Source of the DNA: Candidatus Thorarchaeota archaeon
GTDB taxonomy: Archaea; Asgardarchaeota; Thorarchaeia; Thorarchaeales; Thorarchaeaceae
Assembly (NCBI GenBank): GCA_019057475.1
Contig: DXJO01000010.1
Span: 224,001-288,000, forward strand
DNA length: 64,000 nucleotides
Direction of reading: 5' to 3'
Shown here: positions 18,464 through 26,559 of the stretch, piece after piece
How the letters are laid out: each line of letters starts with the position of its first letter
Position numbering within the stretch: position 1 is the stretch's first letter
The notes under the pieces: model-generated
Databases searched by the model: none
What the model saw: the letters and a program-made list of their open reading frames with translations, nothing else
Told to the model about the DNA's origin: nothing
Translations under genes and position numbers: made by a program

Positions 18464-21400
18464 CTAGAGCTCTTCATCCACTGGTGGCAGAAGGGCTTCG
18501 AGTGCAGACTTGGAGAGTTTCCCGAGTTCTTCCACTCCAACCGCTTCCTTGATTTCTGGAGGTAGGAGATTGATTAGGTCCCTCTTCGTTAACCGCTTCT
18601 TGAGCCTAGTTTTCGACTCTTCAGTTTCGGGTTCGACGTCGGGCTCTGACTCGAGAATCGCTTCTTCCACTGGTTCGATTTTAAGCGTATCAAGGCTCAC
18701 CTCATCAATCACCGGCACAATCTCAGCGCCTTCGTCAGCAATCTTGGAGAGCGATTTCTCCCTGGTATGCCTACCACGCATGATTGTCGATACTCTTGAA
18801 ACCCCCTTCGCCATCCTTGAAGATACGAAGGGAACGATTACTAGGAACACCACAGGCATTAGCACGATGACACCCAGAGAGTAGCTTCTCAGGAAGTCCA
18901 TGGTGAGTACCGTAGTTCCAGTGAGAACTACAAGGAACATGAAGAACTTCATACGTATAGATGAACTCATCTTCTCCACAAGGTCAACGCACTCTTGTTC
19001 CACAACAACTGGTGGTGTCCCCAATACAGCCATCTCTTGGATTCGCATGAGTCCCTTGCCAATCTCCCTGTAGAGGTTCAATACGACTACAACTATTGAC
19101 GAGATATATGCGGCGAATATTGTGAGCATTATGGTAGGAATGGCAACTTCGCCAAAGTGAAAGACATTCTGCAGCACGTAGAATTCCAGCCACTCGATGT
19201 GCTTACCCCACTCGAATATCTGTACGATTACAATGGGAACGAATATCAGATGCCAGAGTCCAAGAATCATCCGTTTCTTGCCAATTTTCTGTGTGCTTCG
19301 GATTGTTGAGCTTGCGTCTCTGTATAGCCAGATGCCGTACAATATGAGTGAAATACCAAGAAGCAAGATGCTTTCTGCCACTGCAAGGCCATAATCCCCG
19401 GCTCCTGCAGATAAGTAGGAATGAAGAACTGTCAATCCGGCCATGCCCACGACACCAAGATAGAGGTAGTCCAATTTTCGGATTCCCTGTATCAGTATCT
19501 CCTGGGTTCCTCTAGTGATCGACAATCCGGATGAGATTCTGAAGTAGACAAGCATTCCAAGGAAGCTGACTAGGAACGAGATTGCAGCAAGGTAGCCAAA
19601 TGATTCGGCATCTAGTGATAACTGTGGAACTGCCACAACTATATTGACCGCTGCCTCGTCTTGGTTGGCGATGCATGTTGCTCCGTGAGCTTCAACTACA
19701 ATGTCCTCCACACCAAAGCCCTGGTCTGCCACTAAGAAATTCACGGAGTACTTTCCGCTATTGGGTATTTCCACAGCATCCTTTGTTTGATTCTGGAATG
19801 TGATGGTAATGGCAAGATTCAACATTAGGTTCCCGTATTTGTCTGTGGCTTCAACTGTGATGTTGAGTTGCTCTCCTTGTTGAGGCTCTTGGGGCCAAAA
19901 TTCTATGCGGAAATTCAACTCGGCCAGGATCTTCACTGTTCCTCTAACTGTCGTATCCTGTGCGAAGTACGTATGACTCACCATCAGAGTCCAATTGTAT
20001 GTTCTTGCGGCCCAGCCTGCAGTTGGTACATTGTATGAATAGGTTCCGTTATGTAGGTCGTTCAGCATGAATAATGATTCATGAATGAGAACTGACACAG
20101 AACTATCATTCATGGCATTGCCAAGCATGTCCTTTAGTTCTACAACAAAGAGTACAGAATCATTTCCCTGTACGTGCAACTGACCTTCCGTTGGTGACAT
20201 CATTGTAATCATAACGTCACTCTTCACTGGAATCACAGTAGTCAGGGTTTTTTGGGCTATGTGTGGCCCTGAAACGGTTACATTGAGAGTATACGAATCC
20301 GGTGGCAACAGCGGAAGGAATGTCCAAGTCTGGTTGTAGAAGGTGGAGCTGCCCGATGTGTTATATTGGTTCCCAAAGCTGATGACATAGTCAAAGTCAT
20401 TCACTGGGTTGCCGTACTGGTCGGTGACAATGATCTCAAATGTCACATTCTGGTTGTTCAGAACCGTTGAGGGCTTAGTAGTCACTGCAATATATGCATT
20501 CCCTGTTATCGAGAAGCTTACAGCTAGCTGCTGGGTGTTCATGAAGCTCTGAGAAACAGTGATCTGTGCGAGATACTCTCCTGGCGGAAAGCTAATAGTG
20601 GCAACTGTGACCGTATAGATGCCTGGTGATGCTTCGACAAGCGCAATAGTGCTACCATATAGAACCAAATCGACATCAGCTTCTGTGATGTTGCTGAAGA
20701 TTTCATCCTGCACATGAACAACGAATTGGATTGGGTTTCCCTGCGCAAAGGACGCCTCGTCCGTTGGCGCAAGTATACGGGCTGATACAACTCCTTGGAC
20801 ATCGATACTGAAGTCGAATGTTGAGAATTGTAGATGTGTTCCGTTCAAGGTCATACCCAACCAGTACGCTCCAGGTGTGAAGCTCGGGTCTACCGTCCAA
20901 GAGAGTCTGTAGGAATTGGATGTCCCCGATTTATTGTAGACTCCGGCGAAATCAAGAGTGTAGTTGAAGTTTGATATTGGGTTTCCGTAGCGGTCAGTGA
21001 TGGTAAAGTTGAAGGTGACATTCAGCTTGTTCTGGACTGGGAATGGTATTGATGTCAATGCGACATCCGCCTCTCCAACTACGGCCAAGCCATGTGCAGT
21101 CTGCCCCTCGTGCAGGTAGGTATGTCCTGCAGTAACTAGAACTGTGTGTTCTCCTAGAGCATAGCCCACGGTGTCAAAGGTCACCGAATAGGTTCCGTCG
21201 CCATTGTCTTGGAAGGCAAGACTGCTAGGACTGATTGCTATCACCGTAGCACCTATCACAGGACTGCCTATCCAGTCACTCAGACTGACGGTGAGTACCG
21301 TAGAATCCGTCTGATTGACGACCCACCCTAGCGACGAGTCAATTGTCATATATGCATCTGAGTACACATAGACATCATAGATGTCAGACCTTGCATTCCC

Positions 21401-24400
21401 AAAGGTGGCGTTCACGTAGATGGTGAAGCTGTTGACCCCGTGAGAAAAGTTGGCCAAAGCAGTGACTCTGAACTCTCCAGCTGAAATCTGAACAGCAGGA
21501 TATATGACTCCGCTGACCTCAGCAGTTATGTTCAGTCCTTCTGGGACAGTGCTGTAGATGTCATAGACGAATACAGATATGTTGAAGTTAGATCCCGCTT
21601 CAGCGGTGCCAATGACGCTCACAGATGGATACAGGTCACCAATAACACCAAGATAGAACTGGTCAAATCTGCTGTTCTGCACGTACGTATGCGACACGAG
21701 AATCTCACACGAGTAGTTGCCTACTGGTAGGGACGCACTCTCATTGAGTAGATACCGTCCGGGTTCTATCTCCGAGAGAGTGAACTCCGTTGTGCCAAAG
21801 TCTAGAGCAACCGTTGCATTCGTGATATCATTGCCGAAGGGGTCTGTGATGTTCAACCAGATGGTGAAATACTCATCCTGGTTCACGAGTTCAGGTACGC
21901 TTCCCGAGATAGTTAAATCGTCTGCGAGAACTGAAACCGAAGCCGTATCAGATGCCGCTGCTGTCGCAAATGGGTGGTCCGCGGATGCTAGCACCGGGTG
22001 ACTTCCTGGAGCCAACGTAATGCTTTGTACCAATCTGTAGTAGGACTCACCCAAGTACTCTGTCGTGTAGTTTGTGCTGTCAAGTGCTATTGTGACATTG
22101 GCGTCCGTGACTTTTCCTCCAATACTGTCTGTTACGGTGACATTCACCTGGAGGTCTTCTCCCTGGGCAACCTGTGGCTGGACAAACAGGGTGACTGTAA
22201 GAGGCGACTCAACCCTCAGTGCGTTTGTGTGCGTTTCTGTGCAGGAGTCATAGTGCTGATGATTGACCGAGTGTGTTAGATTGACGAGCCCAATAGGCCA
22301 GTTCGGGACAATCGTTGTAGTGTAACGTTCCATCATGTCATCATATACTAGCCCCATCGTCTGCTCAGCCGTCCCAGCCCCAAACTCATATTCGACCACC
22401 AAAGATACTGAGGCGTCATAAACTGGCTCATCATACACATTCCAGACGGTCGTATTAGCCCACAGACTACTCCCCTGGATTGTAATGCTGGATTCTAGGG
22501 CAAAGGTAGCATTTAGTACGTAAAGCAGGTTGATGTTGCGAATTGTTGCCTGTGAATAGCGGGCTCGTAGGATCGGGAACGCCGCGATCTCCTCACCTGC
22601 TCCGATGTCAGTACTAGTAACACCAACCATGTTGAAGGTCATTCCAACGACTGCCCGGTAATCTACTTCTCCCTCGAAGCTGACGGCAGTCAACCTGTCA
22701 TCTGAGGTGGCGATAACAAACTCGTCCGCACCGTCGCCGTCATAGTCTAGTACAACCGTGCTCAGAGGTATTGCGTCACTGATGTAGGTACTCCACTGCT
22801 CCGGCTCTGGTTGCGCAAGGTCATGAAGTGATAGGTTCCCGTTTTCCTTGAATATGAAGATCTCCTGAACGCCGTCGTCGTCAAGGTCGTGTGGCACCAA
22901 CATTCTGATGTGATTATTTGAGGTTTCATAGACTGGTGCATCCCCGACCTGTACGGTCTGGTCATCGACAAAGCAGAGGTAGTTTGTAGGAGTGTCACCG
23001 GACCATGCTGTATAGAGGACTAGAAACTGCTCACTTAAGTGACTGGAATTCAGATATGGAAATATATCCATGGGCCAATCATCCACAGTACCCCCAGGTG
23101 ACACGAAGTCCAGTGTTTTGAGCAGTGTCGAATTGTACGCCTGAATGATATCAACCATCTTGTTCTCCCTCAATATGCCTAGCTGCGGCCGCGTACCTGA
23201 TATTGTGGCATAGGCCATTCCTACCACCAGTCCATTCTCGGGAAGATCGACATCTGTCTGTGAAGAGAGGTCACTTTCTACTCTGAATATGGAGGTCTTC
23301 GTGTCGTTACCTGCCACAAAGTGGATTTCATCTAGTCCGTCCTCATCATCGTCGAAGATCTTCAGAGGGTGGTAGGTGTTTGCTGGCGGTCTCGTAAAAG
23401 TAGCATTTTTCCATGACGTGCGATTGGACCCATGAAGGATCCAGAAGCGAGTGTGTGTGTCGTTGTATCCTGCCAGAATTGGGTCCAGAACTGTGTCGCC
23501 ATCTTGCATTCCCGTGTATACCTCGAAGCTTTCCCTGTATGTCACATTGTGGATTTCGAATTCGAGTATGTTTGTACCATTGGTAGCAACGGCTCTCAGA
23601 GTTGCAGTATGCTTTAGAGTTTCCCGTGTCACAAAATAGAGAATCTCTTCAGCCATTGACGTGTTGCCCGGAGCCATGACATGTCTGTGACCTTGGTCAA
23701 CGGTTGCGTTGTAGAAGTATCCGTCACCGAAATGGTCCTCCACGGTGAGAGTTTCTGGATTCGTGAAGTTCCCATATGAGTAGACGTTGAGATATGGATC
23801 CATGACCTCGATGTAATAGTCATAGTTTCCTGCCGTAAGGTCTGTTGTGATGTACAGGTACTTATCGTTGGGAGCCTTGATCATCTCGTTCCCAACGAAT
23901 GAGGTGACAGGTCCTCCACCTGTGGGTCTAATGAACAACGTAGCATGATCTATTGGGAGATCATCTGTGGCTGTTAGTTCAACCTTGAAGTAGCTGTCAT
24001 AGATGGTGGGGTGTGATGGATACAGGGGGTCGAGTGTAACGTCAGGGGCCGTCGTGTCGCTGAGAAGTATTGAGATCTGATCGGTAAGGGCCACCATATC
24101 CTCTCTGCCATCACCGTCTATGTCGAATGTCAGCACTTGGCGGAATGGCCCGGGAACTCTGTACTCCTCATATCCGGTTTCGCCAGTGCTTCCTCTAATC
24201 AGTGTCAGCTGATCGCGAGGCCCCGAGATTGTTATATCAGAATACGTGTCTGAGTCAAGCCTTGCAGTCGCGAACCCCCTGAAGTCTAGGCTAGTTGACT
24301 CTTCCATAGACTGTCCAATCAGTGTCCCATCACTTCCATCGACCACCCACAGGAAGTACCTCATCCAAGGAACAACAACCAAATCCTCTTGAGTGTCCTC

Positions 24401-25390
24401 ATTGAAGAAGCCTGCCTTGACATAGCATGCGTCGTAGTACTCAGGGATGGGTGTGATATAGTGGAGCGTCATGTTCGCATGATATGAAGCAAGGAAGCTC
24501 TTCACGCCCATCAGACTCATGACTGTGACCGCAAAATGGTCTAGCTCGTCATCATACGCGTAACTTGCGAGGTCAACACCCTCCACATGAGCTGAAGACG
24601 AAACACCTCCCAGTCTGGTGCCATTGCCAGCTATCACCGTGACGTTGGCTATGGGTTGAGACAATATATCGAACGTGTTATAGAGTATAGCAATCTCCTG
24701 TTGGTTGCTTGCAGAGAAGTTCCCCACACAGGCCCGCTTGATACGGCCAAAGGGATTGTAGACGCCCAGTTCACTACCATCCGTGAGGTCCATGATTCGG
24801 ACTGTATGGTCGTTGTAGACTGCAACATCAGTCTGACCATCATCGCTGAAGTTTCCGATTACTATCTCAATGGGGTCGATGACATCGCAGAAATGCCCCG
24901 TGACAGTGCCAGCGTCGAAGTCCACCACTACAAGATTCAAGAGAGTGGAGTTGTGCTGCATAAACAGGAACTCGGTGTAGCCATCACCATCAAGGTCTGC
25001 CCCAGTCAGAGTATTATGAAACACATATCCGCCTGAGATTACCAACGAATCGTTGGTCAGAGTGATGGGGTCCTTGAAGCGGATAGTATCCCCATGGACG
25101 TAGGCGTATCCCGACCCTTGTGGTGTTGTACCAACAGCAATTGACTCAACTGGATATGGTAGCTTGACTTTGATTAGGTTTGATGCAGGAGTCATGTAAC
25201 CATCATTCAACATAGGTGTCGCTCTTGCTCCTTCGGATATCGGAGATGTCGCAAGGAGCGGTGCTGCCAATAACAATAGTAAAAACGCGAGGAAGCCTAG
25301 CTTAACAACTAAGACATCTTGCTTTGAGTATTGACGTGCAATCGGTCTGCGGCTGCTCGTTGAAAATGTCTGGTGCATTACTAGTACCAC
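18464..25390 (-). CDS. giant surface/membrane protein: FG-GAP/VCBS-like propellers, about 10 Ig-like repeats, C-terminal 7-TM bundle and acidic tail
   Basis: N-terminal hydrophobic signal; DxDGDGxxD/E blades; repeated TDxxGNxxxxAxV strands; many NxS/T sequons; seven hydrophobic segments near the C-terminus. Confidence 0.85.
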   Translation of the reverse strand: MVLVMHQTFSTSSRRPIARQYSKQDVLVVKLGFLAFLLLLLAAPLLATSPISEGARATPMLNDGYMTPASNLIKVKLPYPVESIAVGTTPQGSGYAYVHGDTIRFKDPITLTNDSLVISGGYVFHNTLTGADLDGDGYTEFLFMQHNSTLLNLVVVDFDAGTVTGHFCDVIDPIEIVIGNFSDDGQTDVAVYNDHTVRIMDLTDGSELGVYNPFGRIKRACVGNFSASNQQEIAILYNTFDILSQPIANVTVIAGNGTRLGGVSSSAHVEGVDLASYAYDDELDHFAVTVMSLMGVKSFLASYHANMTLHYITPIPEYYDACYVKAGFFNEDTQEDLVVVPWMRYFLWVVDGSDGTLIGQSMEESTSLDFRGFATARLDSDTYSDITISGPRDQLTLIRGSTGETGYEEYRVPGPFRQVLTFDIDGDGREDMVALTDQISILLSDTTAPDVTLDPLYPSHPTIYDSYFKVELTATDDLPIDHATLFIRPTGGGPVTSFVGNEMIKAPNDKYLYITTDLTAGNYDYYIEVMDPYLNVYSYGNFTNPETLTVEDHFGDGYFYNATVDQGHRHVMAPGNTSMAEEILYFVTRETLKHTATLRAVATNGTNILEFEIHNVTYRESFEVYTGMQDGDTVLDPILAGYNDTHTRFWILHGSNRTSWKNATFTRPPANTYHPLKIFDDDEDGLDEIHFVAGNDTKTSIFRVESDLSSQTDVDLPENGLVVGMAYATISGTRPQLGILRENKMVDIIQAYNSTLLKTLDFVSPGGTVDDWPMDIFPYLNSSHLSEQFLVLYTAWSGDTPTNYLCFVDDQTVQVGDAPVYETSNNHIRMLVPHDLDDDGVQEIFIFKENGNLSLHDLAQPEPEQWSTYISDAIPLSTVVLDYDGDGADEFVIATSDDRLTAVSFEGEVDYRAVVGMTFNMVGVTSTDIGAGEEIAAFPILRARYSQATIRNINLLYVLNATFALESSITIQGSSLWANTTVWNVYDEPVYDASVSLVVEYEFGAGTAEQTMGLVYDDMMERYTTTIVPNWPIGLVNLTHSVNHQHYDSCTETHTNALRVESPLTVTLFVQPQVAQGEDLQVNVTVTDSIGGKVTDANVTIALDSTNYTTEYLGESYYRLVQSITLAPGSHPVLASADHPFATAAASDTASVSVLADDLTISGSVPELVNQDEYFTIWLNITDPFGNDITNATVALDFGTTEFTLSEIEPGRYLLNESASLPVGNYSCEILVSHTYVQNSRFDQFYLGVIGDLYPSVSVIGTAEAGSNFNISVFVYDIYSTVPEGLNITAEVSGVIYPAVQISAGEFRVTALANFSHGVNSFTIYVNATFGNARSDIYDVYVYSDAYMTIDSSLGWVVNQTDSTVLTVSLSDWIGSPVIGATVIAISPSSLAFQDNGDGTYSVTFDTVGYALGEHTVLVTAGHTYLHEGQTAHGLAVVGEADVALTSIPFPVQNKLNVTFNFTITDRYGNPISNFNYTLDFAGVYNKSGTSNSYRLSWTVDPSFTPGAYWLGMTLNGTHLQFSTFDFSIDVQGVVSARILAPTDEASFAQGNPIQFVVHVQDEIFSNITEADVDLVLYGSTIALVEASPGIYTVTVATISFPPGEYLAQITVSQSFMNTQQLAVSFSITGNAYIAVTTKPSTVLNNQNVTFEIIVTDQYGNPVNDFDYVISFGNQYNTSGSSTFYNQTWTFLPLLPPDSYTLNVTVSGPHIAQKTLTTVIPVKSDVMITMMSPTEGQLHVQGNDSVLFVVELKDMLGNAMNDSSVSVLIHESLFMLNDLHNGTYSYNVPTAGWAARTYNWTLMVSHTYFAQDTTVRGTVKILAELNFRIEFWPQEPQQGEQLNITVEATDKYGNLMLNLAITITFQNQTKDAVEIPNSGKYSVNFLVADQGFGVEDIVVEAHGATCIANQDEAAVNIVVAVPQLSLDAESFGYLAAISFLVSFLGMLVYFRISSGLSITRGTQEILIQGIRKLDYLYLGVVGMAGLTVLHSYLSAGAGDYGLAVAESILLLGISLILYGIWLYRDASSTIRSTQKIGKKRMILGLWHLIFVPIVIVQIFEWGKHIEWLEFYVLQNVFHFGEVAIPTIMLTIFAAYISSIVVVVLNLYREIGKGLMRIQEMAVLGTPPVVVEQECVDLVEKMSSSIRMKFFMFLVVLTGTTVLTMDFLRSYSLGVIVLMPVVFLVIVPFVSSRMAKGVSRVSTIMRGRHTREKSLSKIADEGAEIVPVIDEVSLDTLKIEPVEEAILESEPDVEPETEESKTRLKKRLTKRDLINLLPPEIKEAVGVEELGKLSKSALEALLPPVDEEL

Positions 25391-25642: not shown

Positions 25643-26083
25643 TCACTCATCGAGGAACTTCGTTGGCACGCTTGCTGCGGTTGACACGAGCTCAGCAGCA
25701 GCCTTTGTGTACCGCATGATTTTGCCCATGTTGTCGCCCTTACCAAGACTGAACTTACGCGACATTAGTCCCTTTATCGGGTCTATCTCTCCAGCAAATA
25801 GCTTCTTCCAATTGGCATAAGTTCCCGAATAGGTAAACTCCGCCTTATCGTCATCCTTTGCCATTCTAGCCTCTCTGCAGTCACCATGCCAGAGGTCTAT
25901 GTAGAGTTTCATAGGCTCTTTGATAATATCCCCGTCGGCGTTGACCTGAAAAATAAAATCGCCTTCCCAGTCGCTCGCAGCGTCTTTGTACGCGGCGTTT
26001 TCATTAAGCAATTCCCAATACTTGGCCACCCACTCTTCAGAGGGGAACAGAAGCTTCTCTTTATTCATCGCAGTAATCTCCAT
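25643..26083 (-). CDS. SCP2 sterol-carrier domain protein
   Basis: FPSEEW...WEGDFIF...DLWHGDCR...GEIDPIKGLMSRKF. Confidence 0.88.
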   Translation of the reverse strand: MEITAMNKEKLLFPSEEWVAKYWELLNENAAYKDAASDWEGDFIFQVNADGDIIKEPMKLYIDLWHGDCREARMAKDDDKAEFTYSGTYANWKKLFAGEIDPIKGLMSRKFSLGKGDNMGKIMRYTKAAAELVSTAASVPTKFLDE

Positions 26084-26139
26084 TGTCTACTGTTGACTGT
26101 AATTGAGAATCGAGAGAAAAGCCTTCTGGCTCATGTGTA

Positions 26140-26559
26140 TCATTCATCAGAGAACCTTGTAGGCACTCCTGTTGACGTCGCGACAAGCTCTTGGGCGGCA
26201 CTAATGTAGCGCAACACCTTCACCATGCTTCCTTTGATCTTGAACCTGCGTGAAAGCAATCCCTTGATCGGGCCCATTTCCTGATTAAGGAGTTTCTTCC
26301 AGTTTTCGAGCGTTCCAGAGTAAACAAACTCGGCAGATTCCCCCGGTGCAGCAAGATGAACTGCTCTGCACTTACCATGCCATAAATCTACATACGCTCT
26401 AATCGGTTCTGTCACAGTCTTGCCATCTGAATCAATCTGGAAGATGAAATCGCCTTCCCAGTCTTTTGCCACCTCTTCGTACTGCTGGTTACTGTTGAGG
26501 AGTTCCATGTATCTCTTCATCCAATCCTCGGACAGGAATAGCAGCTTATTCTCGTTCAT
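26140..26559 (-). CDS. SCP2 sterol-carrier domain protein (tandem paralog)
   Basis: FLSEDW...WEGDFIF...DLWHGKCR...GPIKGLLSRRFKIKG. Confidence 0.88.
   Translation of the reverse strand: MNENKLLFLSEDWMKRYMELLNSNQQYEEVAKDWEGDFIFQIDSDGKTVTEPIRAYVDLWHGKCRAVHLAAPGESAEFVYSGTLENWKKLLNQEMGPIKGLLSRRFKIKGSMVKVLRYISAAQELVATSTGVPTRFSDE

Follow-up and report, generated by a model that had tools for sequence, protein, structure and literature searches.

Adhesion G-protein-coupled receptors (GPCRs; class B2, such as the latrophilins, CELSR and ADGRV1) join a very large modular adhesive ectodomain directly to a seven-transmembrane (7TM) domain with the N-terminus outside and the C-terminus inside (N-out/C-in), followed by a cytoplasmic tail, and their longest inner loop lies between transmembrane helices TM5 and TM6. 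The same layout is seen in the product of a giant gene of a Candidatus Thorarchaeota archaeon, an open reading frame (ORF) on the minus strand of a 64,000-nucleotide stretch of contig DXJO01000010.1 (positions 224,001–288,000; assembly GCA_019057475.1), referred to here as the window. The archaeal protein differs from the adhesion GPCRs in that it has no GAIN/GPS, no 7tm_2 signature, no fold match and no known G protein link. The resemblance is one of layout only (for the properties of adhesion GPCRs, see PMC9539791).

Other described systems share parts of this design. Bacterial fibrillar adhesins (PMC8286594) have the same combination of a head and a stalk of repeated immunoglobulin (Ig)-like domains that vary in number, but their anchor is a sortase motif, an outer-membrane barrel or a single TM helix. 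The 7TMR-DISM receptors are likewise prokaryotic, with a sensor domain outside the cell that precedes seven TM helices, but their kinase or cyclase outputs are absent here and Pfam gave no match to their 7TM or DISMED domains. Integrin alpha and FG-GAP/VCBS adhesins such as Vibrio cholerae Bap1 also carry propellers, but the archaeal protein has two of them, probably 8-bladed, together with ten stalk domains, and none of its FG-GAP scores in Pfam exceeds the cut-off. Integrin alpha is furthermore single-pass with a GFFKR-type tail, whereas the archaeal protein has seven TM helices and a tail of 116 amino acids (aa) that is not of the GFFKR type. To our knowledge, no bacterial fibrillar adhesin has a conserved polytopic base.

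We lean towards viewing the archaeal protein as a lineage-specific, adhesion-receptor-like giant surface protein that would couple surface binding to cytoplasmic partners. Its most conserved part is a seven-helix membrane module, and it ends in a small helical module that also occurs in other giant proteins and in a soluble HEAT-repeat protein. A full-text literature search found no description of this giant seven-helix family. GPCR annotations of other Asgard clusters, none of this size or build, are reported in a 2026 preprint (10.64898/2026.10.28.762692).

The seven-helix membrane module

The features that define the ORF and its membrane part are:

18464–25390, minus strand: whole ORF of 2,308 codons when counted from a GTG, with the stop codon at 18464–18466
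18815–19600, minus strand: orphan seven-helix membrane module, predicted N-out/C-in (residues 1931–2192)
18953–19072, minus strand: conserved 40-aa cytoplasmic TM5–TM6 loop, a helical hairpin in the model (residues 2107–2146)

Hydropathy averaged over 25 aligned family members gives exactly seven peaks, and the hydropathy of the protein itself agrees. TM1–TM7 map to 18815–19600, where the original prediction, made from the letters of the DNA, had placed seven hydrophobic segments (~18820–19600); the number of helices, on which that prediction had been staked beforehand, is indeed seven. Summed Lys and Arg residues are 4.8, 3.6, 7.4, and 5.3 for the predicted inner loops and 1.3, 0.2, 0.8, and 0.6 for the outer loops, and by the positive-inside rule this alternation therefore indicates an N-out, C-in topology. 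All N-x-S/T sequons are found in the ectodomain (50/50; shuffles give 18 ± 3.7), which fits an ectodomain outside and a tail inside. The topology assigned from hydropathy, charge bias and an AlphaFold2 (AF2) model is GPCR-like, with the N-terminus outside, seven spans and the C-terminus inside, and charge bias and sequons agree with the orientation that had been proposed.

The AF2 model of the 7TM part was built from 27 sequences (predicted local distance difference test (pLDDT) 75.7, predicted template modelling score (pTM) 0.61; pLDDT 85–95 in the TM3–TM6 core). It contains seven long helices, with a short helix and a β-hairpin in the outer TM4–TM5 loop. On the cytoplasmic side, extensions of TM5 and TM6 form a helical hairpin (model helices 187–223 and 228–264) with an invariant Thr-Pro at its tip.

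Conserved motifs are found in TM3 (LYGIWLYRD, at its inner end), TM4 (GLWHLxxVP), TM6 (SSIRxKFFMFLVVL) and TM7 (PxxFLVVxP). Outside the helices, IEWF is conserved in the outer loop, YRE follows TM5, and the inner loop has a G-T-P turn and a Glu. The invariant and near-invariant positions of the whole 27-sequence alignment lie mostly at the inner face. The most invariant ones are the YRD that ends TM3, the Arg before TM4, the YRE after TM5, the TM5–TM6 hairpin and the IRxK before TM6, and the invariant columns of the TM5–TM6 loop are T226, P227, E234, R247, and K249 (alignment A4, fragment numbering). Constraint is thus stronger on the seven-helix module than on the ectodomain. Identity between orthologs is 72–81% for the 7TM part, 42–56% for the propellers and ~42% for the stalk, and distant paralogs have 47–59% identity in the 7TM part vs. 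25–39% in the ectodomain.

Comparison with known seven-helix families

Searches of Pfam, NCBIfam, PDB sequences and the ESM Atlas with the 7TM module gave no match. The original prediction had suggested a structure model and a Foldseek search of this part as a check, and Foldseek of the model containing it returned nothing at E < 0.1 among known folds, including any known transporter or anchor domain. GPCR rows in VIA-align had a rmsd of 14–16 Å. No Pfam 7tm family matched the query or any of the 27 members at E up to 10, hmmscan with the same limit listed neither the 7TM nor the DISMED domain of 7TMR-DISM, and the whole protein had no GPS or GAIN match in Pfam at E up to 1. The original prediction had also seen no GAIN/GPS and had made no claim of homology to GPCRs, a restraint that these searches justify. 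Its analogy to adhesion GPCRs or integrin-like sensors holds for the layout. The words receptor-like and sensor are an interpretation; neither a signalling output domain nor a G protein link was seen.

The segment before TM1 consists of the last Ig-like repeat and a conserved P-Q-[LI]-S motif. In its longer form, P-Q-[LI]-S-[LM], this juxtamembrane motif is located at 19616–19660 of the window (minus strand; residues ~1911–1925), 8–10 residues before TM1, and its Pro is nearly invariant across the seven-helix family.

Sub-threshold HlyIII matches were obtained for 3/27 members (best E 4.6e-4), and one member that was checked scored 19.3 bits, the cut-off of PF03006 (PAQR/HlyIII) being 26.2 bits. 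A PAQR/HlyIII identity was rejected because hhalign of alignment A1 against a genuine Asgard HlyIII protein gave a probability of 0.13% and because PAQRs have the opposite membrane topology. No gene matching the PAQR/HlyIII family model was found in 24 Thorarchaeaceae genomes (E up to 1e-5). The seven-helix module belongs to no known family and has no convincing fold match; apart from its topology, it is probably neither GPCR-like nor PAQR-like.

The cytoplasmic tail and its module

Two features make up most of the tail:

18593–18814, minus strand: basic juxtamembrane helix, then an acidic disordered linker (residues 2193–2266)
18482–18592, minus strand: tail module of 37 aa (residues 2267–2303; AF2, alignment A3)

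The tail after TM7 has 116 aa, of which 26 are Asp or Glu and 18 are Lys or Arg. Its linker has a pLDDT < 50 at model residues 321–365 and an identity of 30–43% between orthologs. The tail module is modelled as four short helices with a pLDDT of ~93, much as expected from the acidic tail with a short terminal helical module described at the outset, and has the consensus LTKKELIExLPxEIKExxxEEELRKLSKKELEALL (alignment A3). A Pfam scan of the tail gave only Nexin_C (E 0.15), and a PDB profile search with the tail module gave only chance matches of the 'KLSKKELE' type (E 0.05 or worse). An identity as SAP, HeH or Rho_N was rejected, as PF02037, PF12949, and PF07498 miss all three tail-module sites of the genome at E up to 10.

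Searched by itself, the module also picks out the C-terminal ends of further giant ORFs (2,000–4,000 aa), where it follows one TM helix and an acidic linker. One such ORF, with a single TM helix, an acidic linker and a C-terminal tail module, is found on the same contig outside the window (3,643 aa; G000:C42:431577-434741) and is a second giant surface protein of the same genome that uses the module. An ORF of 3,848 aa (G352:C158) ends with two tandem copies. Single-pass giants of ~2,300–2,400 aa in other Thorarchaeaceae genera (tails L055:360-1799 and L057:1-1401) have a helix-hairpin-helix-like GIG motif between the TM helix and the tail module, and one database fragment is annotated as a HhH domain protein (P0190, PF14520).

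The tail module was found in 78/85 Thorarchaeaceae genomes vs. 0/314 other Asgard genomes (E up to 1e-6), an apparent restriction that has to be read with the caveat that the profile was built from Thorarchaeaceae sequences. Its named database matches are all from Thorarchaeota. In a quick tree of the 7TM family, the module occurs in only one clade (25 rows, SH-aLRT 100), and the two members of this clade that lack it are cut by contig ends. As the tail-bearing 7TM proteins form one clade, the tree suggests that the module was gained once within the family.

Two to three tail modules are also carried by a soluble HEAT-repeat protein of ~390–460 aa. A hidden Markov model (HMM) made from the tails of the giant proteins only matches 10/10 HEAT orthologs (E 8e-8 to 3e-17) but nothing else in a set of 176 ORFs, and the link between giant tails and HEAT protein is therefore not circular. 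The HEAT locus (G000:C56:43000-53000) lies outside the window and is kept in 8–10/10 Thorarchaeaceae genomes. It encodes SPFH/Band7, NfeD, a Rce1-like CPBP protease, the HEAT protein with its 2–3 modules, a vWA protein and an amidohydrolase. The synteny of this locus may be simple inheritance.

The ectodomain

From the N-terminus, the extracellular part is organized as follows:

25247–25378, minus strand: basic stretch and hydrophobic segment, predicted Sec-type signal peptide or signal anchor (residues 5–48)
24065–25177, minus strand: β-propeller 1, FG-GAP/VCBS-like, ~8 predicted blades with DxDxDG-type loops (residues 72–442)
23741–23995, minus strand: β-sandwich between the propellers, like Ig or fibronectin (FN) domains (residues 466–550; AF2 secondary structure, pLDDT)
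22541–23677, minus strand: β-propeller 2, FG-GAP-like (residues 572–950; AF2, Pfam FG-GAP_3, Foldseek)
19637–22498, minus strand: Ig-like stalk of about ten ~95-aa repeats (residues 965–1918; iterated HMM on the protein itself)

The Kyte–Doolittle hydropathy of the N-terminal region peaks at 2.53 (residues 26–44), and homologs show the same N-terminal pattern. A basic stretch followed by a hydrophobic one fits the signal peptide that had been proposed. The AF2 model of the ectodomain (21-sequence alignment, pLDDT 82, pTM 0.73) gives two all-β domains, at residues 72–442 and 572–950, around a β-sandwich that is preceded by a disordered link (residues 446–462), and so reproduces the two propeller clusters with an Ig/FN-like module between them that were first read from the sequence. 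The Foldseek matches of the head are multi-propeller structures, and DxDxDG-type loops are visible in the ectodomain sequence. Both propellers are probably roughly 8-bladed. The Pfam FG-GAP_3 match at residues 835–892 equals the cut-off (26.9 bits), and the support for FG-GAP is thus marginal.

An HMM seeded on six of the stalk repeats found nine clear Ig-like repeats of ~95 aa (residues 1059–1918) and a tenth, weak and divergent copy that is the first in the stalk (residues 972–1054), close to the ~10 Ig repeats originally counted. The stalk gave sub-threshold Pfam matches to Big_1, Invasin_D3, Big_7, Filamin, and Wzt_C, and no match in a PDB sequence search. Typical Ig-domain dimensions would give the extended stalk a length of roughly 35–40 nm. 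The N-terminal 916 residues are colinear in 20/20 homologs examined, including forms of 1,840 and 2,990 aa, and the length differences between homologs therefore lie in the stalk. With an adhesive head and tandem stalk domains whose repeat number varies among homologs, the ectodomain is built as in fibrillar adhesins.

Family distribution

The C-terminal 409 aa recovered 92 large homologs (1,287–2,964 aa), labelled as Thor-, Sif-, Odin-, Loki-, and Helarchaeota, and an exhaustive phmmer search with the same 409 aa found 105 cluster representatives among 1.84 billion proteins. Where a match is full-size, its seven-helix module is C-terminal; shorter matches to the TM module also exist and may be fragments. 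The distribution in Asgard genomes had been suggested as a check together with the original prediction: the family is present in 91/400 of them, including 59/85 Thorarchaeaceae, with up to four matches per genome. A scan of 185,579 species genomes for the two strongest motifs, taken from the closer alignment A4, gave 68 loci. Their named records are only Thor-, Promethe-, Njord-, and Hermodarchaeota, the rest being labelled just (uncultured) archaeon. In these searches the seven-helix family is restricted to Asgard archaea and found mainly in Thorarchaeaceae.

Distant members of the TM module with Loki or Hel labels (P0142, P0144, P0093, and P0139) have ~1,100–1,600 aa. They carry BNR/sialidase-type propellers, and a double zinc-ribbon cytoplasmic tail replaces the Thorarchaeaceae module. 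Several homologs (G333:C21, G368:C99, G394:C88, G336:C9, and G007:C15) contain a single in-frame stop codon (TAG, TGA or TAA) within the matching region, and these could be pseudogenes, assembly errors or cases of recoding.

Gene and genomic setting

The ORF at 18464–25390 is real as predicted. A database protein that is 100% identical to its product has 2,304 aa, vs. the 2,308 codons of the ORF when started at GTG, and the likely start is therefore the ATG at the fifth codon (25378), which would give a product of 2,304 aa. The gene is single-copy in its genome, a Thorarchaeota metagenome-assembled genome that is 96% complete. The closest named relative, with 89% identity, is from a 'Candidatus Thorarchaeota archaeon' contig.

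Within the window, the neighbours of the giant gene are metabolic genes, with NMO (nitronate monooxygenase), Fe-ADH, AFOR, and PAP2 on one flank and two SCP2, PHP, and flavodoxin genes on the other. The gap is 250 bp to the upstream SCP2 gene and 74 bp to the downstream NMO gene. The two SCP2 genes form a tandem pair of sterol-carrier-like genes directly upstream (25643–26559, minus strand).

Possible roles of the giant protein

The explanation that we favour, with modest confidence, is that of an adhesion-receptor-like protein coupled to the cytoplasm. About ten Ig-like domains form the stalk that carries a head of two FG-GAP-like propellers, predicted to be glycosylated; the stalk is rooted in the orphan seven-helix module, and a disordered acidic linker presents the 37-aa helical module at the C-terminus. 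The ligand of the head would be found on partner cells or polymers, and the seven-helix and tail modules may then link its binding to cytoplasmic partners by docking, clustering or localization, possibly via the HEAT-repeat protein. The seven-helix module would in that case be more than an anchor. Such coupling implies neither a signalling enzyme nor a G protein.

Several observations weigh against this explanation. Neither a signalling output domain nor a G protein link was found, nor a conserved operon partner: the window offers only metabolic neighbours for the giant gene, and no neighbour gene is kept across 14 loci. In most paralogous subfamilies the protein stops within a few to a few dozen residues past TM7 and has no tail module, and the docking module is therefore an add-on rather than part of a core mechanism. 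The AF2 model of the 7TM part rests on 27 sequences (pTM 0.61), and packing or oligomerization constraints can also give high conservation of a polytopic domain. The ligand, partner and output of the giant protein are putative, as is the binding of the tail module to the HEAT protein or to others.

The protein could instead be a passive structural adhesin or envelope protein, in which the seven helices would be a strong and perhaps oligomerizing anchor for a long glycosylated fiber and nothing would be transmitted inward. The ectodomain is that of a typical fibrillar adhesin, many paralogs have almost no cytoplasmic tail, the search for an output domain or operon partner was negative, and Asgard cells have no ordered S-layer (PMC9834061). 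However, the 7TM part is the best conserved part of the protein, its invariant residues are polar or charged and placed at the cytoplasmic face and in the 40-aa inner loop rather than facing the lipid, and one TM helix is enough for other giants of these genomes. We regard a purely passive role as possible but rather unlikely. A channel or transporter function of the membrane module, with the ectodomain as its gate, is improbable, either as a tethered mechanosensor of the polycystin-1 type or as a mover of small solutes or lipids. In polycystin-1 (PKD1), too, many Ig-like repeats in a row precede a polytopic membrane domain, and the cytoplasmic tail has a helical element, but the archaeal protein has no REJ, GAIN, or PLAT domain (as judged by Pfam), no 11-TM or TRP-like channel part, and no sequence or fold relation to PKD1. 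Least probable is a remote homolog of a known 7TM class (GPCR, PAQR/HlyIII or 7TMR-DISM) that has diverged past sequence detection. The module shares with GPCRs its seven N-out/C-in helices, a charged YRD motif that closes TM3 on the inner side and a long inner TM5–TM6 loop, a few members have the sub-threshold HlyIII matches, and other Asgard clusters have been annotated as GPCRs (10.64898/2026.10.28.762692), but this is countered by the negative Foldseek, Pfam 7tm and 7TMR-DISM searches, the high rmsd to GPCRs, the hhalign result for HlyIII and the opposite topology of PAQRs.

A more far-reaching version of the coupling explanation, which we consider speculative and unlikely to hold in full, is an outside-in adhesion system of the Thorarchaeaceae's own. 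Here an orphan seven-helix transducer beneath giant glycosylated adhesins would be combined with a family-specific, cytoplasmic 37-aa docking module that wires several unrelated giants to a HEAT adaptor, a soluble multi-module protein encoded in the conserved stomatin (SPFH)/NfeD/CPBP-protease/vWA locus. If true, this would be a receptor-to-cytoplasm link in those prokaryotes that are the nearest to eukaryotes, and it would have arisen separately from GPCRs and integrins.

Significance for Asgard cell surfaces

Cultured Asgard cells depend on partners, have no ordered S-layer and possess complex surface proteins that are poorly understood (PMC9834061). The giant family is a concrete and widespread candidate for such a surface structure. 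Two uncharacterized modules are directly testable, namely the seven-helix domain with its conserved inner face and the tail module common to the giants and the HEAT protein. Should the two modules connect binding at the surface with the cytoplasm, they would reveal how this lineage senses or organizes cell–cell contact, and the adhesion-receptor layout would have been invented independently. If they do not, the family would still represent a new way to anchor a fibrillar adhesin.

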